Origin: Anaerolineae bacterium
GTDB lineage: Bacteria > Chloroflexota > Anaerolineae > UBA1429
Length of the DNA stretch: 64,000 nucleotides
Assembly: GCA_963675785.1 (NCBI GenBank)
Contig: OY776562.1
Coordinates: 1,952,001 to 2,016,000, forward strand
Reading direction: 5' to 3'
A model generated the notes under the pieces. The model was not told the origin of the DNA and ran no database searches. It saw only the letters and a program-made list of their open reading frames with translations. Positions 18,226 to 51,171 of this stretch are shown one piece after another (the first letter of the stretch is position 1; each line of letters opens with the position of its first letter). The position numbers were made by a program, and so were the translations under genes.

Positions 18226-19320
18226 CTACATTGAAATCAAGCACACATCATTATTCCCCGCAGCGTCACGTCGGCAAAAGACGATACGACTGCCATCTGG
18301 GCTAAAAGCCGGATGAGGATGGTACAGCGTATTGGCGATAGTCAATTCCTGATGGTGTGCCGCCAGTGGCGTCAACTCGTTGGTAGCCAAGTTCAGCAAC
18401 GTAACGTACTGGGGATCATCGCCCACGATCCAGCGCCCTTCCCGATCATTGATAAAATGACAAAAAGGATGCTCGGTGATGATCGTCTCGCGGCCAGTCG
18501 CCACATCCACCATCCGCACTGAAGTTGGCTCATCCAACGCGGGGCACGTATAGGCATAAGCCACACTGCGGCCGTCATCCAGCCAATATTCGTGGCCGAT
18601 GCGGATATCGGGATGCTCCTGATAGCGCAAGGGCCTGATATTGGAGCCATCCCATTTCATCAGCCACAAGCGTTGCTCCACGCGATCCCAGGGGCCCTCA
18701 TAGCAAAAGAGCAGCGTCGTGGGATCAGTGGGACAAAATAGCAAGTGTTGCAGGTTACGCTTTTCCTCGTGAGCCTTCCAGACTTTGGCCCCATCGGAGG
18801 TCATGACCCAAAAACTGCACAACGGGCGCACCTCGTAACGGCGAACGAAATCGGCCGGCCCATCCTCGGCGTGTTCATAAGCGCCCATCTCCATAAAGCC
18901 TAGATATTGGCCATCACGTGAGATATCCAACAAGACAAACTGACCAGTCTCGGGCGTTTCATGGGTGTGGATCAGCTTCTCTTCTAGCGTCTCGATGTTG
19001 AGCTGATAGACTAGATCTCCCTGGGTATAGTAGATGAGTGGCCTATACGGATCCACGCTGGGCCGACCGGGATCCAGGGTACAGTCTGTAAGACGGCGGA
19101 TCCGCTCTTTTTGCAGATCGTAAGCGTAAATCTGCCAACTGCCGGTACGGTCAGAGTTGATGAGCAGATAACGGCCATTGTCCACAAAGTTGAGGCGATT
19201 GAAATAGACGTGCTTGTTGTTGCCCTCGCCTTTGGTAATCTGGGCGTAACTACGACCAGTCACCTCATCCTCGATGGTCAACGGCGGATAGTCGTACCAC
19301 ACTCCTCGATCCCACATCAT
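18226..19320 (-). CDS. Oligogalacturonate lyase (PL22/Ogl)-like beta-propeller
   Basis: HVYFN, FCYEGPWDRVEQRLW, GHEYW, HPHPAFSPDG motifs. Confidence 0.75.
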   Translation of the reverse strand: MMWDRGVWYDYPPLTIEDEVTGRSYAQITKGEGNNKHVYFNRLNFVDNGRYLLINSDRTGSWQIYAYDLQKERIRRLTDCTLDPGRPSVDPYRPLIYYTQGDLVYQLNIETLEEKLIHTHETPETGQFVLLDISRDGQYLGFMEMGAYEHAEDGPADFVRRYEVRPLCSFWVMTSDGAKVWKAHEEKRNLQHLLFCPTDPTTLLFCYEGPWDRVEQRLWLMKWDGSNIRPLRYQEHPDIRIGHEYWLDDGRSVAYAYTCPALDEPTSVRMVDVATGRETIITEHPFCHFINDREGRWIVGDDPQYVTLLNLATNELTPLAAHHQELTIANTLYHPHPAFSPDGSRIVFCRRDAAGNNDVCLISM

Positions 19321-19561
19321 GCTCTGTTCTCCTCAAAAGACTCGGCGGCAGCTTGCAGGTGAGGTATCCATTACCCTCTCGAAATCCGTGGCTAGCAGAA
19401 TATGGTCATCGGCGTAAACACGTGAGGCATCACCCTGGGCGCGAGCACGATCCCAACAAGGGTTATAGTCAGCTAATCCGGGCATACGGCAGCTTTCTTT
19501 CGCTAACAATCCGCCCTTGTATACATGCCGTTGGTGCCCGCGTCAACCATTAGCGGCAAAC

Positions 19562-19593
19562 AAAAAGGCACAACTCTTTCGAGTTGTGCCTTT
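19562..19593 (-). terminator. Terminator of the REase-STAND gene
   Basis: AAAGGCACAACTC-TTTC-GAGTTGTGCCTTT. Confidence 0.8.
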
Positions 19594-19622
19594 CCAACAT
19601 GATGCATTCGATAGTTAGTTTC

Positions 19623-21995
19623 TCAACACGGAAGTTCCTTGTCAAGTATACGATCAACCTGGTTCCAATCTGAATTTCCATCAAAATATCTATCAATATC
19701 AAAATCTTCTCGGTCAGGCTGCAAGTAGCTGTTTACTGCATTTTCTATTTCATCGTAAGGAACAGAAACATTATCTATCCAATCGCTTATGTAATTGCTG
19801 TAGATATCATTGATATTCTCTAAAGCTGCCCCGATTTCCTCTTTAGCTCGTTCTTCGACCATGTCATGGATCCGGTCAATTGCAGATCCAGCAATTTCAT
19901 CTAACTCGCATGGCCTCTTTGTATTTTTTGTTATCTCATCAATTATTGAATCTATATCCGTATCTTGAACAAAATCGCTGATGAAATACGCGTAAGCATA
20001 TTGCTTAATTGCTATGAAGATTGAATCACAGACGACCTCTAAAAGCTCTTGGAATTGCTTTTGAGTTATCTGGAAAGAACGTCTTTTCTCACAAAAACGC
20101 TCATGAAGCTGATTCACTACTTCCACCAGAGATTCCATTTCTAGATCCCCTAGCATTCTCTCAATAATACTTTTATTGCTCAATATTTGCTGGTCAATTT
20201 TGTAGAACGAAAATAAGGGATCGCATAAAAGAGAAAATAGTATCTTGTCTTTTTCATACCAATCCTTGCTAACAAATACCCCAGACGATATTTCTAGCAG
20301 GATCGGAATAATTAGTTCCGTATATCGCTGATCTAGAATTTTGAACTTACATACTCCATATAAAACGATTTCATCTATATGCCGTATTCTATCTTTTATA
20401 TTTAGTATGCTTCCATTTATTATTTTTTCTAATATCACTTCGTCAATTTTATCTCCATACAAACGTTCTAATTGTTCAAAATATACTGCCGAGCGTTTTA
20501 CATATTCCCAAAACGGTTCATTCTTGTTAAACACAATTCGCAGGTAATCATTAATTGACGGGTTTAGTACTTGTATTAGTTGTTCATTAGTTGAAGGTTG
20601 CACTACCTTAACGAGAGAGCCATTAAGCCGTGCAAGAGCCGCTTCGAAATGATTAATGGTAAAATCAATATCCGGAACTTGCAATAAGCAAGCAGTAAAA
20701 CATTCCTTAAGAATCTCTAGTTCAATAGAATCATCCGTTAATGAATAAAGAACTGCCATGAGTATTCTATCAACAGAACCTAAACGTCTCTCAAATTCCT
20801 CTCTCCAAACATCCTCAGGATTATCCAGACGATCAACTATGTAATCGTAGTATTTATTTGGACAAACAGAGTTATACCGATCCATTGAAGAAACATACTC
20901 GATAATTCGAGGATTATAATTGCGATGAGCAATAATCCTTCGGTAATTCTTGTGCGTCCTCACGCTAGAGTAATACTCATTTGGTACATGGTTAAGAATC
21001 AGATGATTATAGAAAATACGGGCCTTGTAAACATTGCCCATATCGTTCAGATCAATAATATAGAGTTTTATTTTTTCCGATTCAATATATCGAAGAAATT
21101 CTTGAGAACGTTCTTTGGCTGCATTAAGAACCGTTACACGCGAGTTGAGGAGAATGATCTTATTCGGAGTCATTTTCACATATTTCAACAAAGAAAGTAT
21201 TTCGTTTTCTTGCGTTTCTGAAATATGCAGATAGCACTGACCAAGACAGTCATCTATGAATATCATTTCTTTGATATCAGAATCTATTAAAAGAGAGTTT
21301 TTAACATCCCTAACGTTCCCTGCTGTTGTATATCGAACACGATATCCTTGTTTAGCAAAAAAGAGGACCAACATTTTCGATGTGATCGTTTTCCCTACTC
21401 CCGGATCCCCAATGAGCATCAAAGATCGAGTTTTTTCCAATACTTCAACACTTTTATCGAACAAAGGCGTTTGAACAAAGCGCCTGTTATCTTCTTCTGC
21501 ATCTGCCAACAATGACGCACAATCGATAAAGATATCTTGATTATTAATCTCAGATAAAATACCTGTAGCCGAAAACCAAAGTTTACAGTGTTTTCTTGCG
21601 ATCTCTATATTTTGGGGATCAGTAAGGAATCGATCTATTTCAAGCTGTGTGACAATGTTTTTAGCCGAATCCATATAGCTAGCAAACATATTATAAATGT
21701 CAGTGACATTTCCCCGAGTCAATTCCTTCAAACAGCAAATATAGTATTGTTCTGGAGCAAGTTGCTCTATCCTTTCAACTTCTTTCGATAGAGATCGTTT
21801 CAGATTTGAAAACGAGCTACGCATGTAATATTTGACTTGAACGATAATCCTGGGCTTTAAAACATCATCACACAGATCAATTCCCCCATCCTTACCTCGT
21901 CCGAAGCTCCTCAAACTCACGCCCAGCTTCTTCTCCATGATATCCTGGCACAATAATTCGAACTCATAGTCATCTATATTCAGATAATTGAGCAT
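19623..21995 (-). CDS. Mrr-like restriction endonuclease fused to an nSTAND3-type NTPase; putative anti-phage protein
   Basis: N-terminal EFE..C.D...DGGIDL...IVQVK (PD-D/ExK); Walker A GDPGVGKT; Walker B IFIDDCLG; NSR; YNPRII; strongly AT-rich. Confidence 0.8.
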   Translation of the reverse strand: MLNYLNIDDYEFELLCQDIMEKKLGVSLRSFGRGKDGGIDLCDDVLKPRIIVQVKYYMRSSFSNLKRSLSKEVERIEQLAPEQYYICCLKELTRGNVTDIYNMFASYMDSAKNIVTQLEIDRFLTDPQNIEIARKHCKLWFSATGILSEINNQDIFIDCASLLADAEEDNRRFVQTPLFDKSVEVLEKTRSLMLIGDPGVGKTITSKMLVLFFAKQGYRVRYTTAGNVRDVKNSLLIDSDIKEMIFIDDCLGQCYLHISETQENEILSLLKYVKMTPNKIILLNSRVTVLNAAKERSQEFLRYIESEKIKLYIIDLNDMGNVYKARIFYNHLILNHVPNEYYSSVRTHKNYRRIIAHRNYNPRIIEYVSSMDRYNSVCPNKYYDYIVDRLDNPEDVWREEFERRLGSVDRILMAVLYSLTDDSIELEILKECFTACLLQVPDIDFTINHFEAALARLNGSLVKVVQPSTNEQLIQVLNPSINDYLRIVFNKNEPFWEYVKRSAVYFEQLERLYGDKIDEVILEKIINGSILNIKDRIRHIDEIVLYGVCKFKILDQRYTELIIPILLEISSGVFVSKDWYEKDKILFSLLCDPLFSFYKIDQQILSNKSIIERMLGDLEMESLVEVVNQLHERFCEKRRSFQITQKQFQELLEVVCDSIFIAIKQYAYAYFISDFVQDTDIDSIIDEITKNTKRPCELDEIAGSAIDRIHDMVEERAKEEIGAALENINDIYSNYISDWIDNVSVPYDEIENAVNSYLQPDREDFDIDRYFDGNSDWNQVDRILDKELPC

Positions 21996-22246
21996 CTAGT
22001 TTGTCCTTCTCACCATTTTGAACGCCACCGAAGACAGTTATGCCAAAACTAAGCATAACAATCTCGCTACTTCTAACTTATTCATCCAGACGTATGAGCT
22101 TCCAGTTCTCTTCTGAAGAACATTAACTATAACTAGTCATTGATAACAAAATCAAAGTGAACTTACCTTCGCTCCAGTATATTATAGCAATCACAAGAGA
22201 AATTAGTAGCGTTCTCAAACGAGGAAAGGACCTAGAAGGACGAACA

Positions 22247-22278
22247 CAAAAAGGGTCAGCTCTCACGAGCTGACCCTT
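22247..22278 (-). terminator. Terminator downstream of tRNA-Asp
   Basis: AAGGGTCAGCTC-TCAC-GAGCTGACCCTT plus T-tract on the minus strand. Confidence 0.8.
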
Positions 22279-22279
22279 A

Positions 22280-22356
22280 TGGCGGAAGCGACGGGAGTTG
22301 AACCCGCGATCTTCGGCTTGACAGGCCGACATGTTAGACCACTACACCACGCCTCC
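22280..22356 (-). tRNA. tRNA-Asp(GTC), 77 nt, encoded CCA
   Basis: GGAGGCG...TCGGC-CTGTCAA-GCCGA...GGTTCAACTCCC...CGCTTCCGCCA cloverleaf. Confidence 0.97.
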
Positions 22357-22556: not shown

Positions 22557-23504
22557 ATGCCCTATCAAGTGTTGACGAACCAGGAACCCGTTGAAACTGT
22601 CCTCGACCTCGTAGGCGACGAGGTCGAATTTCATGTTTGGGATCCAAACGACCAAGACTTGGCTGCCAAGCTGCCCGAGATCGAGGGTGTTTATCTCTAT
22701 GGCCTTTTGCGTGTAACTCGCGAATTGATGGACAAGATGCCAGCGCTCAAAGTTGTGTGCACCACGAGTGTGGGCTATGACCATATCGATGTCGAGGCGG
22801 CCCGCGAACGGGGTATTGCTGTAGGCCACACGCCGCACGTGCTCAGTGGCGCTGTCGCCGATATGGCCTTTGCACTGATGCTCTCTTTGACGCGTAATGT
22901 ACTCCCCGCCAACGAATATGCCCACGGTTCCAAATTCACAGCTTTTCTCCCCGAAATATTCATGGGGCACGAAGTACACGATAGCACGATCGGCATTGTC
23001 GGCCTGGGCAACATTGGCAAAGAAATCGCCAAGCGAGCCCATGGCTTTGATATGAACATCCTCTATTACGATATCCGCCAGAATCCAGCGATTGAAGAGG
23101 CCTATGGCGCCCAATTCTGCGCCCTGAACGAGCTCTTCCAACATGCAGATTACGTGGTGCTCATGGTTCCCCTAACCAAATCCACCTATCATTTGATCGG
23201 CGAGGAACAATTGCGCCTGATGAAGCCCACCGCTGAACTCATCAATATCTCGCGCGGAGGCGTGCTCGACCACAAAGCGCTATACAAGGCACTCACAGAG
23301 GGCTGGATTCGTGGGGCGGCTCTAGACGTCACCGAACCCGAACCCCTGCCGCGCGACCATCCGTTGCTTGAGCTAGATAACCTCATCATCACGCCGCATC
23401 TGGGTACCTCCACCTGGGAGACGCGCGATGCCATGCTCGACCTGGCCATCCGCAATCTGCTGGCTGGTCTGCGCGGCGAGCCCATGCCCGCTCGTGCAGT
23501 CTAA
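22557..23504 (+). CDS. D-2-hydroxyacid dehydrogenase (glyoxylate/hydroxypyruvate reductase-like), paralog 1
   Basis: GLGNIG, NISRG, LDVTEPEP, PHLG. Confidence 0.92.
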   Translation: MPYQVLTNQEPVETVLDLVGDEVEFHVWDPNDQDLAAKLPEIEGVYLYGLLRVTRELMDKMPALKVVCTTSVGYDHIDVEAARERGIAVGHTPHVLSGAVADMAFALMLSLTRNVLPANEYAHGSKFTAFLPEIFMGHEVHDSTIGIVGLGNIGKEIAKRAHGFDMNILYYDIRQNPAIEEAYGAQFCALNELFQHADYVVLMVPLTKSTYHLIGEEQLRLMKPTAELINISRGGVLDHKALYKALTEGWIRGAALDVTEPEPLPRDHPLLELDNLIITPHLGTSTWETRDAMLDLAIRNLLAGLRGEPMPARAV

Positions 23505-23515
23505 AAGATAGAATC

Positions 23516-23554
23516 AAAAAGCTCTTTATCTCAATTGAGGTGAAGAGCTTTTTT
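23516..23554 (+). terminator. Intrinsic terminator
   Basis: AAAAAGCTCTT...AAGAGCTTTTTT. Confidence 0.75.
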
Positions 23555-23680
23555 GTTAATAGAGCATCTACGGCACAGAGCTCGACCCCACATTTCTACA
23601 GTGTTACACTACAGACATCACAATCTATCAATTATGGCTACCCCTTATTACGCCGATTACCTCGAATCAGGAGTGTCGAT

Positions 23681-24628
23681 ATGGCTCATCAGGTTTTGAC
23701 AAACGAACCCCCTACAGCCGATTTACTCTCACTCACCGGCGATCAAATCGACTTTTACGTGTGGGATCCAGAAAACGCGCAAATCCAAGCGCTGCTTCCT
23801 CAGATTGAAGGCATCTTTTTGCGTAGCCATTTGCACATCGATGGCGCTTTTATGGACCGTCTGCCAGCACTCAAAGTCATTAGCAACACAGGCGTCGGTG
23901 TCGATCACATCAATCTGGATGATGCTCGCGCACGCGGTATTCCCGTAGGCAACACTCCCAGCGTGCTCAATGGCGCAGTGGCCGATATGGCCTTTGCCCT
24001 CATGCTCGCTTTCTCGCGCAATCTGGTGCCCGCAGCCAATTATGCCTGTTCGCCCAAATTCACGACCTATGAAGTGAATGCTTTTCTCGGCCACGAGGTA
24101 CACAGCACAACCCTCGGCATCATCGGCCTGGGAAAAATCGGCCAAGAAATAGCCAAGCGTGCCCAAGGATTCGGCATGTCAATCTTGTACTATAACCGCC
24201 ACCGTGATCCTTATGCAGAACAAACTTTGGAAGCGGTGTACTGTCCACTATCCGAACTCTTGAGTCGCTCCGACTATGTGGTGCTCATGGTCCCCCTCAC
24301 CAGCGAAACCCGCCACATGATTGGGCAAACCGAACTGCGGCAGATGAAATCCTCTGCCGTCCTGGTCAACATGGCCCGTGGTGGCGTGGTTGACCATGAT
24401 GCTTTGGTCATCGCCCTACAGAAAAATTGGATTCGCGGAGCCGCGCTTGACGTTACGGAGCCCGAGCCCTTACCGCGTGATCATCCCTTGCTCACCATCG
24501 ATAACGTGCTCATCTTGCCCCATCTGGGCAGTGCCACAGTGGAAACACGCCAAGCCATGTTGGAATTATCCGTCGCCAATCTTTTTGCCGGATTGCGCGG
24601 CGAAGCCCTCCCCGCTCGCATTGCCTGA
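23681..24628 (+). CDS. D-2-hydroxyacid dehydrogenase, paralog 2
   Basis: Same motifs; start ATG23681 with AGGAG RBS gives the same 948-bp length as the other paralogs. Confidence 0.92.
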   Translation: MAHQVLTNEPPTADLLSLTGDQIDFYVWDPENAQIQALLPQIEGIFLRSHLHIDGAFMDRLPALKVISNTGVGVDHINLDDARARGIPVGNTPSVLNGAVADMAFALMLAFSRNLVPAANYACSPKFTTYEVNAFLGHEVHSTTLGIIGLGKIGQEIAKRAQGFGMSILYYNRHRDPYAEQTLEAVYCPLSELLSRSDYVVLMVPLTSETRHMIGQTELRQMKSSAVLVNMARGGVVDHDALVIALQKNWIRGAALDVTEPEPLPRDHPLLTIDNVLILPHLGSATVETRQAMLELSVANLFAGLRGEALPARIA

Positions 24629-24641
24629 TCGACGAAAAATC

Positions 24642-24673
24642 AAGGCTCCTCTTTGTTAAAGAGGAGCCTTTTT
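24642..24673 (+). terminator. Intrinsic terminator
   Basis: AAGGCTCCTCTTT-GTT-AAAGAGGAGCCTTTTT. Confidence 0.8.
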
Positions 24674-24808
24674 CTCCCTACAGAGTCAAACGTTGTAGTA
24701 CTTGCACAATAGCCAAGCTCGACGCCTCAGCCAGGTGATGCTAAACTGGTCAATGATTGAATCTCAATATACAGCTTTTTCCCACACACATGATCAGGAG
24801 TTTACGAA

Positions 24809-25756
24809 ATGGCCTACCAGGTTTTAACGAACATCCCCCCTTTACCCAAGGTACGTGAGGCAGCTGGCGACCTGATCGATTTTCATGTGTGGGATCCCGA
24901 TGATGCCGAAATAGTAGCCAAGCTGTCCGAGATCGAGGGCATATTTATCTACGGCTTGCTGCCCATCGATGGCGCTTTTATGGACCGCATGCCCAAGCTC
25001 AAGGTCATTTGCACCACCAGCGTCGGCGTCGATCACATTAACCTGAATGACGCCCGTGCCCGCGGCATTCCTGTGGGCAATGTGCCCGGCATCCTCGATG
25101 GCGCCGTGGCCGACTTGGCTTTTGCTATTTTGCTGGCCTATGCCCGCAACATCGTGACTGCCGTCAACTACGCCCATAGTCCCGAGTTTACTGTCTATGA
25201 CCCTACGGGGTTTATGGGACACGAAGTACACAGCACCACTCTGGGCATCATGGGCTTGGGCAATATCGGCAAGGCTATCGCCAAGCGTGCCCTCGCCTTT
25301 GATATGAACATCCTCTATCACAATCGTCACCGCGACCTGGAAGCCGAAAAGACCTACCATGCCGAATACTGTTCCATGCCCGATTTATTCGGTCGTGCCG
25401 ATTACGTGCTGCTGATGGTTCCCCTAACTCAAGAGACCTATCACATGATCGGCGCCGAGCAGCTGCATTGGCTGAAACCGACGGGCGTGCTAATCAATAT
25501 GGCCCGCGGCGGTGTGGTCGATCACGATGCCCTGGTTACCGCCCTGCAGGAAAAGTGGTTCCGTGGTGCGGTGTTGGATGTCACCGAGCCTGAGCCCCTG
25601 CCACGCGATCATCCCTTGCTCAGCATGGATAACGTACTCATCTCGCCACACCTCGGTAGTTCGACCATCGAGACGCGTGAGGCCATGATGGTTGCCTCTG
25701 TGGAAAACCTGCTGGCGGGATTGCGTGGCCAACCATTACCCATGCGCAAAGCTTGA
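24809..25756 (+). CDS. D-2-hydroxyacid dehydrogenase, paralog 3
   Basis: Same motifs as paralogs 1 and 2. Confidence 0.92.
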   Translation: MAYQVLTNIPPLPKVREAAGDLIDFHVWDPDDAEIVAKLSEIEGIFIYGLLPIDGAFMDRMPKLKVICTTSVGVDHINLNDARARGIPVGNVPGILDGAVADLAFAILLAYARNIVTAVNYAHSPEFTVYDPTGFMGHEVHSTTLGIMGLGNIGKAIAKRALAFDMNILYHNRHRDLEAEKTYHAEYCSMPDLFGRADYVLLMVPLTQETYHMIGAEQLHWLKPTGVLINMARGGVVDHDALVTALQEKWFRGAVLDVTEPEPLPRDHPLLSMDNVLISPHLGSSTIETREAMMVASVENLLAGLRGQPLPMRKA

Positions 25757-39857: not shown

Positions 39858-40274
39858 TTATTCTTCTTTTTGATAGCGCATAGCGATGCTCCGCGGGGTA
39901 AAACCCAAGCTCTGCCAGAATTGCGAGCCGGCCTCATTCCACGCATACACCTCGATGTCGATCGTTTCATCACCCAGTGCGTCCATCAGTTCGCCAAAGA
40001 AGGCTTTCCCATAGTCCCTTCTCCTGTGCTCACGGCAGATAAAGAACTGCCGCAAGTACTTGGGCGTCTCGGTAACCCGAACCAAAGCATAGCCAACGAT
40101 CTCTTGCTCAATCACATAAAAATAGGCGCGGTAATCCCCTACTAGAAAATCCCGCATCCTCTGTTCGAGCTGTGCCCAATTCATGGGATTGTCGCTGGCT
40201 TCATCCTCGATGAGCTGCCTGTTCAGTGTGGCCAGCAGCGCACAATCACCCAGTGTGCATTGAATTACTGGCAT
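39858..40274 (-). CDS. GNAT acetyltransferase
   Basis: LRQFFICREHRRRDYGK, WN..G..FW.SLGF. Confidence 0.85.
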   Translation of the reverse strand: MPVIQCTLGDCALLATLNRQLIEDEASDNPMNWAQLEQRMRDFLVGDYRAYFYVIEQEIVGYALVRVTETPKYLRQFFICREHRRRDYGKAFFGELMDALGDETIDIEVYAWNEAGSQFWQSLGFTPRSIAMRYQKEE

Positions 40275-40446
40275 TCGTTTGCGTCCTGTTGAGCTTTTTT
40301 ATATCCAGCACATCATCCGTGTAAACAAGCAGTTCGTTGTACAAGGAAAGGTTATAGCTGTTGGGGTTAATCCGCGCTTCATCAAAAGGCTCAATGATGA
40401 TCTCGCTGTTCATGTGCCTCTTGGTCTCTCTACCAGAAAGTATCAT
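40275..40446 (-). pseudogene. dcd: Truncated dCTP deaminase (5' part only)
   Basis: MILSGRETKRHMNSEIIIEPFDEARINPNSYNL...RTQT matches the N-terminus of 44111-44632, then breaks at the GNAT start. Confidence 0.9.
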
Positions 40447-40737
40447 GCGCCGTATCCTACCTTGTCGATCAATCTCTCGAATCGCTAGGTACAATCTCCT
40501 AACCTATGATCTTTTTGCCGCCACGAATCTGAAAGCGGGTAATACACGCCATCCTTGGCCTGGCTGCCCATATCCCACGTGCCATCTTCACACTGATTGT
40601 CTCTGAGCCAATCCCCCACAAAGGCCAACTTGCCCCTGCACCATTCGCAATCTACCAAGAGCTCGATTGCCCCCAGATAACAGCTGGCGGATTTGCAGCG
40701 CGATGATCTCCTGCGACCATTTCGAGTCTTTGAACAT
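40443..40737 (-). pseudogene. Internally deleted copy of hypothetical gene 44629-45480
   Basis: MFKDSKWSQEIIALQ start and the 3' ~240 bp align; the middle ~550 bp is missing. Confidence 0.88.
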
Positions 40738-44110: not shown

Positions 44111-44632
44111 CTATTTCTCAAAATCTCGGTACATCAAGCTCGCCTGTATGCCCGTGTTGTTCTGATATTTATTGCTATGATAGAGGTCATAGTCCCCCTC
44201 AATCGTATGGTAATAGATCTGGCAAACCTCGACATTGGGATAGATGATCAACGGCTGAATGCAAAACATCTCTAGCGTCCAATAGCCGGCAAAACCCACA
44301 TCGCCAAAGCCAGCCGTCACATGGATGAACAGTCCCAAGCGCCCCGTCGAAGAACGCCCCTCCAACATGGGCACAAAAGTCTCAGTTCGGGTGTATTCGT
44401 TTGTCCGGCCCAGATACAGCTTGCCCGGTTCAAGCAAAAAACCCTCTTCAGGAATGGTTATCGTTTGCGTCCTGTTGGGCTTTTTCATATCCAGCACGTC
44501 ATCCTCATACACAAGCAGTTCATTGTGCAACGAGAGGTTATAGCTGTTGGGATTGATCCGCGCTTCGTCAAAAGGCTCGATGATGATCTCGCTGCCCATG
44601 TGCCTCTTGATCTCTCTACCCGATAGTATCAT
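44111..44632 (-). CDS. dcd: dCTP deaminase
   Basis: NPNSYNL, LEGRSSTGRLGL, TAGFGDVGFAGYWTLE; ATGA overlap with the upstream gene. Confidence 0.92.
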   Translation of the reverse strand: MILSGREIKRHMGSEIIIEPFDEARINPNSYNLSLHNELLVYEDDVLDMKKPNRTQTITIPEEGFLLEPGKLYLGRTNEYTRTETFVPMLEGRSSTGRLGLFIHVTAGFGDVGFAGYWTLEMFCIQPLIIYPNVEVCQIYYHTIEGDYDLYHSNKYQNNTGIQASLMYRDFEK

Positions 44633-45480
44633 GTGCCGCATCCTATCTTGCTCATCAATCGCCCGATTCGCCAGGTACAATCCCCCACGCGATCAGCCTT
44701 TCGCCGCCACGAATCTGAAAGCGGGTAATACACGCCATCCTTGGCCTGGCTGCCCATATCCCAAAGGCCATCCTCGCTACGATTTTGCTCAAGCCAGTCC
44801 GTCACAAAAGCCAGCTTACCCCTACAGCGTTCATAATCCGCCAAGAGCTCGACCGCCGCCAGATAGCGAATGGCAGCCTTGCTCATGAACTGATCGGGCA
44901 ACACGCATAGCGGGGCGTCATAAATGTAATAGATGCCCGTCTCGTGCCTCAAAACATGCTCTAGGAAGAGGGCTTCTTCTCGTGAAGCCAAACAGCCCAC
45001 CAGTAGCGAGACTGGGTAAAAGGAAACGAAATCGACGAGTCGCCCACCTCGCGCTTGCTTCTGAAAGCAGGCTTGATAGGAGCGCAGGTAATCTTTATCA
45101 TCATAGCAACCCGAATGAAACGCACCCGAGATGACCTCGGCCCACATCCGCGCCGCCGCATTGGCATTAGCATCGTCTGGTGTAAAACGCCGAATCCAGG
45201 TAGCCAGCATGAGACGCGTAAAGATATCCCAATCGTGCATCTTTTCGCGGCGGTCGGGCAGCGTCTTTTCCCCTATAAGGCAAGCGTGCATGTAATCGAC
45301 AGCCCTCCGAATGGGGGTATCCTCGATTGTGTAGCCCAGTACCGACAACCTCCGCAAGGCCTGCTCCGTCGTTATGGGCCGTTCTTTGGTGGGTTGGCTG
45401 AGTGTGTGAAAATACCCCCATGATCCCTCGGGGGTTTGCAGTGCCACGATCTCTTGCGCCCATTTCGAGCCCTTGAACAT
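44629..45480 (-). CDS. Hypothetical protein, alpha/alpha-toroid (prenyltransferase-like QW repeats)
   Basis: LQTPEGSWG, TTEQAL..L..LG, QNRSEDGLWD. Confidence 0.55.
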   Translation of the reverse strand: MFKGSKWAQEIVALQTPEGSWGYFHTLSQPTKERPITTEQALRRLSVLGYTIEDTPIRRAVDYMHACLIGEKTLPDRREKMHDWDIFTRLMLATWIRRFTPDDANANAAARMWAEVISGAFHSGCYDDKDYLRSYQACFQKQARGGRLVDFVSFYPVSLLVGCLASREEALFLEHVLRHETGIYYIYDAPLCVLPDQFMSKAAIRYLAAVELLADYERCRGKLAFVTDWLEQNRSEDGLWDMGSQAKDGVYYPLSDSWRRKADRVGDCTWRIGRLMSKIGCGT

Positions 45481-51094: not shown

Positions 51095-51171
51095 TGGCGG
51101 AAGCGACGGGAGTTGAACCCGCGATCTTCGGCTTGACAGGCCGACATGTTAGACCACTACACCACGCCTCC
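51095..51171 (-). tRNA. tRNA-Asp(GTC), second identical copy
   Basis: Identical 77 nt to 22280-22356. Confidence 0.97.

Follow-up and report, generated by a model that had tools for sequence, protein, structure and literature searches.

Among described anti-phage systems, the Avs proteins and the PDC candidates come closest to the protein studied here. Avs5 carries the nSTAND3 family PF20720 (10.1101/2025.07.08.663546), and mutations in a Q-x-K nuclease abolish killing in several Avs families (PMC13581612). The PDC set comprises 145 predicted candidate systems which are embedded in BREX, DISARM or type I restriction-modification (R-M) loci and which were added to PADLOC for later functional work; the candidate S73 goes unnamed in the body text of that study (Payne et al., 10.1101/2024.01.29.577857). 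Here, we analyzed a gene within a 64,000-nucleotide stretch of DNA, hereafter the window, from an Anaerolineae bacterium (assembly GCA_963675785.1, contig OY776562.1, positions 1,952,001 to 2,016,000 of the forward strand). Judged by its sequence, the encoded protein of 790 amino acids (aa) is a divergent member of the already catalogued PDC-S73 candidate family. By analogy with Avs proteins, it is quite probably a one-protein antiviral STAND receptor which acts by abortive infection, the Mrr nuclease killing the cell after phage sensing. New here is a conserved end-helix that is predicted to fold back on the switch, possibly as a safety latch.

Family assignment and domain architecture

The protein matched the PADLOC model for PDC-S73 (PDLC05079) at E 1.7e-110 and 369 bits, with residues 4-735 aligned to positions 6-709 of the 752-position profile; the assignment was judged by E-value, bits and coverage, not by PADLOC's own cut-offs. 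The next model reached 77 bits, and such matches were confined to the nuclease domain of Argonaute-associated proteins. PDC-S73 was also the best PADLOC match in 5/5 relatives checked. Clustered at 50% identity, the family comes to 4687 clusters under a limit of E<=0.001 and to 2455 under E<=1e-30, and Mrr plus nSTAND3 proteins of about 760-790 aa form ESM Atlas clusters in Bacillota, Actinomycetota and Pseudomonadota. Full-length relatives share at most about 45% identity with the window protein. An earlier interpretation of the window, made without database searches (the sequence-only reading), had implied that the system was new, which is contradicted by a profile match over nearly the whole length and by the size of the family. 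The gene itself is therefore ordinary, adding a member to a candidate family that is already catalogued. The name PDC-S73 was not found in the literature searched, and the nSTAND3 or PF20720 papers found there concern Avs5, fungal NLR proteins or unrelated matter.

The architecture proposed in the sequence-only reading agrees with our results. Both families that it suggested checking were matched in Pfam, i.e., Mrr_cat at residues 6-59 (E 1.3e-5) and nSTAND3 at residues 173-332 (E 1.4e-33), the structure model contains a winged helix, and the C-terminus is acidic, with 23% D+E and 8% K+R in residues 641-790 and a net charge of -23 in the C-terminal 150 residues (family median -26.5). No TPR or WD40 family was matched in Pfam at E<=0.1. 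The motifs it quoted (DGGID..QVK, GDPGVGKT, IFIDDCLG, NSR and YNPRII) are all found in the translation, but the nuclease lysine it named K56 is really K55, and the motif reads D40...Q53-x-K55. At the sequence level, the N-terminal effector has an intact active site, as D36, D40, Q53 and K55 are present and conserved. Walker A and B, the sensor arginine, the helical domain and the winged helix follow in the order of a STAND NTPase, and the NPS triplet that ends the winged helix presumably occupies the position where NB-ARC proteins have the MHD motif. Pfam gave no NACHT family at E<=0.1 and a weak NPHP3_N match under its cut-off, and neither SIR2 nor the Mrr N-terminal domain was matched in the protein. 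NCBIfam returned weak P-loop matches only. The gene also stands as a single-gene unit, as it is flanked by the tRNA terminator and its own hairpin, and the neighbors differ across the loci of 40 relatives.

Predicted structure and conservation

The AlphaFold2 model of the full protein, based on a 114-sequence alignment, has a mean pLDDT (the predicted score of the local distance difference test) of 88.8 and a predicted template modeling score (pTM) of 0.73. The top Foldseek matches are SAMD9, Avs5, Avs4 and Avs3 at E ~1e-8 to 6e-8, with template modeling (TM) scores of only 0.18-0.27. In structural alignment, residues 139-516 fit CED-4 (Z 18.2, root-mean-square deviation (rmsd) 5.3, 316 aligned), and plant NLRs also fit; on account of these fits, the core is a STAND switch of NBD (nucleotide-binding domain), HD1 (helical domain 1) and winged-helix domain.

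Conservation was assessed in 302 distinct relatives, which are all those of 730-830 aa that had been collected. D36, D40, Q53, K202 and R286 occur in 302/302, K55 and D248 in 300/302, and D249 in 301/302. The nuclease residues stood outside the patterns used to find the locus-derived rows, while the conservation of Walker B, NPS and KLW is in part built in, because the patterns were placed around these motifs. R286 matches the TT/SR arginine described for EfAvs5 (PMC11897194).

The C-terminal domain (C-domain, 496-790) modeled in isolation is almost all helical (pLDDT 89.7), and its mean column identity is 27%, compared to 45% for the whole protein. Foldseek gave no match at E<=0.001 for this domain alone, and searches for solved relatives by phmmer and profiles gave P-loop-level matches only. 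Its best structural match is a designed helical protein (VIA Z 8.1, rmsd 6.2, 198 aligned), which shows neither a new nor a known fold, and a single ESM Atlas lead at 0.80 is at chance level. A TPR-like repeat sensor would be consistent with the helical content; a Pfam TPR match is lacking, and the best Z of 8.1 is to a designed protein. The earlier description of the sensor as unfamiliar is therefore fair, as neither Foldseek nor structural alignment gave a clear solved match. When the C-domain was searched in longer proteins, all 8 matches were nSTAND3 proteins, so that sensor sharing with other systems is not seen there, although this is weak evidence.

A conserved terminal helix with a predicted docking site

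A strict terminal-helix pattern occurs at 205/302 C-termini, compared to a shuffle mean of 0.73 (maximum 4), and the hydrophobic triad of the helix is kept in 288/302 relatives. A hydrophobic-x-x-hydrophobic-F end was also found in 7/7 further homologues, i.e., that of phage HM T and six plasmid proteins (of 46 plasmid records) from Chlorobiota, Pseudomonadota and Actinomycetota whose C-domain does not align to the profile; the seven cover four phyla. By sequence, a terminal helix on an acidic linker is thus conserved across phyla.

For the helix, pLDDT falls from 88 in the model of the whole protein to ~57-62 when the C-domain is modeled by itself, the two models being based on different alignments. 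When the helix was folded as a chain of its own together with residues 1-760 and ADP, alongside three controls, it was placed on HD1 at residues 320-355 with a model score of 0.68 vs. 0.25 for the best control. The docking mark is reached by 116/157 solved complexes and 2/215 mismatched pairs, counts that apply only roughly here. Contact agreement between runs was at least 75%, and partner pLDDT was at least 54. In the docked model, V780, I783 and L784 pack against A325, Y329, Y351 and I355, and nuclease residues 8-10 and 30 are also contacted. The groove residues A325, Y329, I345 and Y351 are kept in 255-289/302 relatives. The modeling thus supports binding of the terminal helix to HD1, a prediction which concerns how the receptor is held off and which is sharply testable.

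Precedents for the role of such a helix point both ways when Avs proteins are used as analogues. SeAvs7 has a conserved terminal helix that collides with the NBD when the protein is activated (PMC13581612), and C-terminal deletions of PaAvs5-1 abolish defense (10.1101/2025.07.08.663546); the precedent from EfAvs5 is weighed below.

Gene, position and transcription signals

The gene (19623-21995, minus strand) is an intact ORF (open reading frame) of 790 aa with an ATG start and no internal stops. Its GC content is 0.362 vs. 0.536 for the genome, and 0/1355 non-overlapping genome tiles of 2373 nt are as low. With the tRNA-Asp(GTC) gene at 22280-22356 on the minus strand, the tRNA 3' end lies 285 bp ahead of the ATG; coordinates and composition thus match the AT-rich ORF past tRNA-Asp described before. 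The claimed terminator was also recovered, as a 13-bp hairpin without mismatches at 19564-19593 and, behind it on the minus strand, a T-run, though the consensus terminator scan of the window did not list it. One extended -10 element was found in the window vs. 1.43 expected, which is not above chance, and consensus counts for promoters and terminators in the window showed no excess over shuffles. Ribosome-binding-like, promoter-like and terminator elements are all present at the gene (Table 1).

The terminator of the gene (19560-19592) and that of the tRNA (22246-22278) are 76% alike in register over 33 nt. In both, the stem differences are fully paired and the loops are GNRA, and four other genome sites fit the pattern. 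The likeness may reflect an old duplication or mere host terminator style.

Table 1. Features of the PDC-S73-family locus, in window coordinates
Feature	Position	Strand	Basis
PDC-S73-family gene (Mrr nuclease / nSTAND3 NTPase / helical C-domain), 790 aa	19623..21995	-	ORF, Pfam, PADLOC, AlphaFold2 model
Mrr-like PD-(D/E/Q)xK nuclease domain, ~residues 1-140; D36, D40, Q53, K55	21576..21995	-	Pfam Mrr_cat, conservation
nSTAND3 nucleotide-binding domain, ~residues 153-316; Walker A G196-T203, Walker B D248/D249, sensor N-S-R286	21048..21539	-	
Helical domain 1, ~residues 317-400, YxPR motif; groove 320-355 predicted to hold the terminal helix	20793..21047	-	
Winged-helix domain, ~residues 401-495, ending in near-invariant N478-P479-S480	20511..20792	-	
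Acidic, divergent, almost all-helical C-domain, ~residues 496-760; presumed sensor	19716..20510	-	
Low-confidence acidic linker (~761-775) and conserved terminal helix (776-786, V-D-R-I-L; family consensus I-D-x-I-F-x-R)	19626..19715	-	
Intrinsic-terminator-like hairpin behind the gene	19560..19593	-	hairpin + T-run
Perfect extended -10 element TGCTATAAT, candidate own promoter, ~185 nt ahead of the ATG	22181..22189	-	
tRNA-Asp terminator, parting the tRNA transcript from the gene	22246..22278	-	terminator scan
tRNA-Asp(GTC), right-hand edge of the variable segment	22280..22356	-	
Strain-variable segment, ~2.95 kb	19333..22277	.	deeper flank contigs in runs X4, X7

Horizontal acquisition and strain variation

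All 10 organism-named matches among the best 120 to the aspartyl-tRNA synthetase of the window are Chloroflexota or Anaerolineae, while a search of 60 kin genomes with this query found the STAND gene in none of them, so that transfer is likely. The closest named relatives of the STAND protein are Bacillota, and together with the low GC content and the strain-variable segment described below, these results fit the horizontal acquisition suggested in the sequence-only reading. In a tree of 61 rows (9 left out, Bacillota-dominated loci only), the window protein lies on a long end branch (0.85) with no supported sister group, and hence no donor is indicated.

In sequencing runs X4 and X7, deeper flank contigs diverge from the window sequence at 19332 and at 22277/22278, the latter being the tRNA 3' end. 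These contigs have a depth of 48-155, which does not equal a share of cells, and their left flank carries many substitutions. One 3030-nt contig in run X4 covers 19277-22306 with no differences at a depth of ~10, and a second contig, from a different study, runs across 19525-20038 and shows 6 differences; the gene is therefore not an artefact of assembly. The 2.95-kb segment likely differs between co-occurring strains, and the gene is carried by the shallower strain in both runs. No contig joining the flanks across 19332-22278 without the window segment was found in the runs searched, nor was a duplicated tRNA 3' end (att site) found near the gene. The locus is of interest as a tRNA-end slot which differs between co-occurring Anaerolineae-like strains and holds a gene with Bacillota relatives.

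Identical tRNA-Asp genes lie at 22280-22356 and 51095-51171 on the same strand, 28.8 kb apart. The two copies share ~108 nt at 95% including the promoter-side flank, and AT-rich DNA follows both. Runs X4 and X7 contain two different tRNA-Asp 3' flanks which are unlike either window flank, and both tRNA-Asp 3' ends may be variable cargo slots. Between the two copies, an accessory-looking region (GNAT, GyrI-like and MerR genes) holds a short (40249-40494) and a full (44114-44680) dCTP-deaminase-like ORF with near-identical N-termini, which suggests a local duplication. Three tandem paralogues of D-2-hydroxyacid dehydrogenase genes occupy 22557-25756. As stated in the sequence-only reading, no methyltransferase is nearby: the 57 other window ORFs gave no PADLOC methyltransferase or defense model at E<=1e-10, save two ABC ATPases with generic models.

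Relatives and their neighborhoods

From 233 confirmed matches, 80 relatives' loci were kept, of which 78 are titled Bacillota and 2 have no phylum. Neighbors were scanned at the 40 loci that measure 15 kb or more and have the gene intact; up to 3 ORFs per side, no farther away than 5 kb, were taken, which gave 236 ORFs. A defense neighbor was defined as a PADLOC match at E<=1e-30, tallied by hand with generic ABC, IstB and DinG matches dropped. The proposal that homologues cluster with defense genes held in part, as defense neighbors were present at 22/40 loci and absent from the remainder. They include Gabija, Thoeris, Wadjet, R-M, DUF4297-HerA, GmrSD-like, PARIS AriA and Ppl. Integrase, recombinase, transposase, relaxase or Rep neighbors occur at 9/21 loci scanned with Pfam, and the relative is more AT-rich than its flanks in 74/78 loci with a called ORF. 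Adjacency to a tRNA is no family trait, as a tRNA lies within 1 kb at 3/80 loci.

Relatives are found on 45-46 plasmid records and 3 phage records. A relative with 44.8% identity is carried by the temperate Clostridium phage HM T, where it lies between the replication and terminase modules. This gene, HMT_19 (L092:6001-8364), is a full-length member annotated merely as 'restriction endonuclease', and it is possibly a prophage-encoded defense gene. Another relative, P0057, has a trypsin-like domain added in front, a changed D40 position and a shorter C-terminus; by analogy with the exchange known for Avs proteins, it is possibly an effector swap. A Lachnospiraceae cassette at three loci (L038, L049 and L053) consists of a Fic-like gene, the PDC-S73 gene and then a PDC-S02 gene, and similar gene sizes are seen at L042-L045, L050, L069 and L076. 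At L016, L019, L022, L025, L036, L037 and L055, the relative is broken up into shorter ORFs or has no long ORF, and broken copies thus seem fairly common in the family. At L024 and L029, the relative adjoins a tRNA(U5)-methyltransferase/rumA-family gene, a type of site that serves as an integration hotspot.

Proposed mechanism and alternative explanations

The effector-STAND-sensor architecture, which is supported as Avs-like, allows a mechanism to be proposed. Inferred from Avs4, Avs5 and Avs7, the protein at rest would be a closed ADP-bound monomer in which the terminal helix, packed on HD1 next to the first helix of the nuclease, clamps the sensor end on the switch. A phage protein, which is probably basic given that the surface is acidic, would bind the C-domain or linker and loosen the clamp. 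After exchange of ADP for ATP, the NTPase would oligomerize, and the clustered Mrr domains would cut host and phage DNA non-specifically, leading to death of the infected cell. A more specific variant holds that PDC-S73 is a cross-phylum STAND family under the control of a tethered latch, in which an amphipathic terminal helix on an exposed acidic linker clamps HD1. Phage infection would then be sensed through an attack on the tether itself, without a TPR surface that wraps around a phage fold. The tether could be attacked by a phage protease, or the linker could be captured as a mimic of DNA or of a single-stranded-DNA-binding protein (SSB) tail by a phage DNA-binding or replication protein. 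This variant is unlikely in our estimate; if true, it would mean that a bacterial NLR-like receptor is activated by bait and release.

Several results weigh against an Avs-like antiviral receptor or against its latch. None of the PADLOC Avs models was matched by the protein at E<=0.1, in a comparison that covers the PADLOC models but not Avs8, Avs10-24 or the 90 clusters of sensors from Lee et al. 2026, and the structural alignment to Avs5 (Z 14.2, rmsd 15.5) is poor beyond the core. No integrase or defense gene was found among the window ORFs scanned, and the gene stands alone here. At 18/40 relatives' loci there was no defense neighbor, three of the 22 positives are one neighborhood, and the contrast with the window, where 0/57 other ORFs pass the same rule, is rough and not taxon-matched. 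No bench test of the family was found in the literature, with subscription journals and unread supplements outside the search. The docking is a model, and the contact could be plain structure or an inter-subunit contact instead of a latch. In the 302 sequences (Neff 237), phylogeny dominated the mutual-information covariation, which did not single out the tail contacts; A325-V780, at z 3.3, ranked tenth among tail pairs amid this noise. Lastly, loss of the last six residues of EfAvs5 abolishes defense and does not unleash the protein (PMC11897194).

A different role for the same architecture is that the STAND protein does not bind a phage protein directly and instead guards a host process or senses plasmid or mobile-element entry, with the terminal helix as an inter-subunit contact. 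This would fit the short C-domain, which matches no solved sensor, and there are precedents: bNACHT25 senses a host chaperone and no trigger was found for Avs22-24 (PMC13581612), and C-terminal residues of EfAvs5 mediate filament bundling (PMC11897194). However, the C-domain diverges fast compared to the conserved core, which fits an arms race with variable foreign ligands, and 13 further Avs families sense phage proteins (PMC13581612). We therefore consider such a guard quite improbable. The Mrr_cat match, the title 'restriction endonuclease' that NCBI gives many relatives, and the lack of a methyltransferase beside the gene in the PADLOC scan would also suit a stand-alone type IV restriction enzyme, in which Mrr cuts modified foreign DNA, the NTPase regulates and the cell survives. 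A winged helix can bind DNA, which counts for the same view. Still, the NTPase fold is an NB-ARC-type switch that is nearest to CED-4, NLRs, Avs and SAMD9, the negatively charged C-terminus is ill suited to reading DNA, and no type IV restriction endonuclease model in PADLOC was matched, so that a restriction enzyme seems a poor prospect, a shade below the guard.

In this host, the gene might also be silent or of no use, a passenger of the tRNA-end cassette, given its foreign composition, its variation between strains and its presence in the shallower strain of X4 and X7. Yet the reading frame is unbroken and no motif is lost, the gene has promoter-like, ribosome-binding-like and terminator elements, and it is undamaged despite the long end branch and the absence of a close donor. 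Decay can be seen where it occurs, as in the broken copies at several other loci, and a passenger is the least credible of these alternatives, with very little chance of being correct. The antiviral STAND receptor thus remains our preferred explanation. Since PDC-S73 is large, compact and present in several phyla, with no bench test in the literature searched, the family is a good target for a trigger screen.

Comparison with known systems

Type IV enzymes of the Mrr kind share Mrr_cat with the window protein, but here the nuclease is fused to a STAND NTPase and the Mrr N-terminal domain is unmatched. Compared to bNACHT proteins, the NTPase best matches nSTAND3 and not the NACHT profile. The likeness to Avs5 (EfAvs5 and PaAvs5) lies in nSTAND3, a short C-terminal region and a Foldseek E of 2e-8, and the extreme C-terminus is important in Avs5 (PMC11897194; 10.1101/2025.07.08.663546). 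Avs5 differs in carrying a SIR2 NADase where this protein has an Mrr nuclease, and its sensor surface is described as positive (PMC11897194), whereas the C-domain here is acidic and the two do not match. With Avs4, Avs2 and Avs7, the protein shares an N-terminal Q-x-K nuclease on a STAND switch (Foldseek E 3e-8 to Avs4), and a latch of the proposed kind would resemble the autoinhibition of SeAvs7, which includes a terminal helix (PMC13581612). At 790 aa, it is about half the length of Avs4 with its 1534 resolved residues, and in contrast to these three it has neither a long TPR solenoid nor a sequence match to their models. Unlike the PDC candidates as published, the window gene is not embedded in an R-M or BREX locus. 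Compared to the PDC-S73 profile, it is the same single gene, matched over residues 4-735, in the form of a divergent protein in an Anaerolineae-like host.

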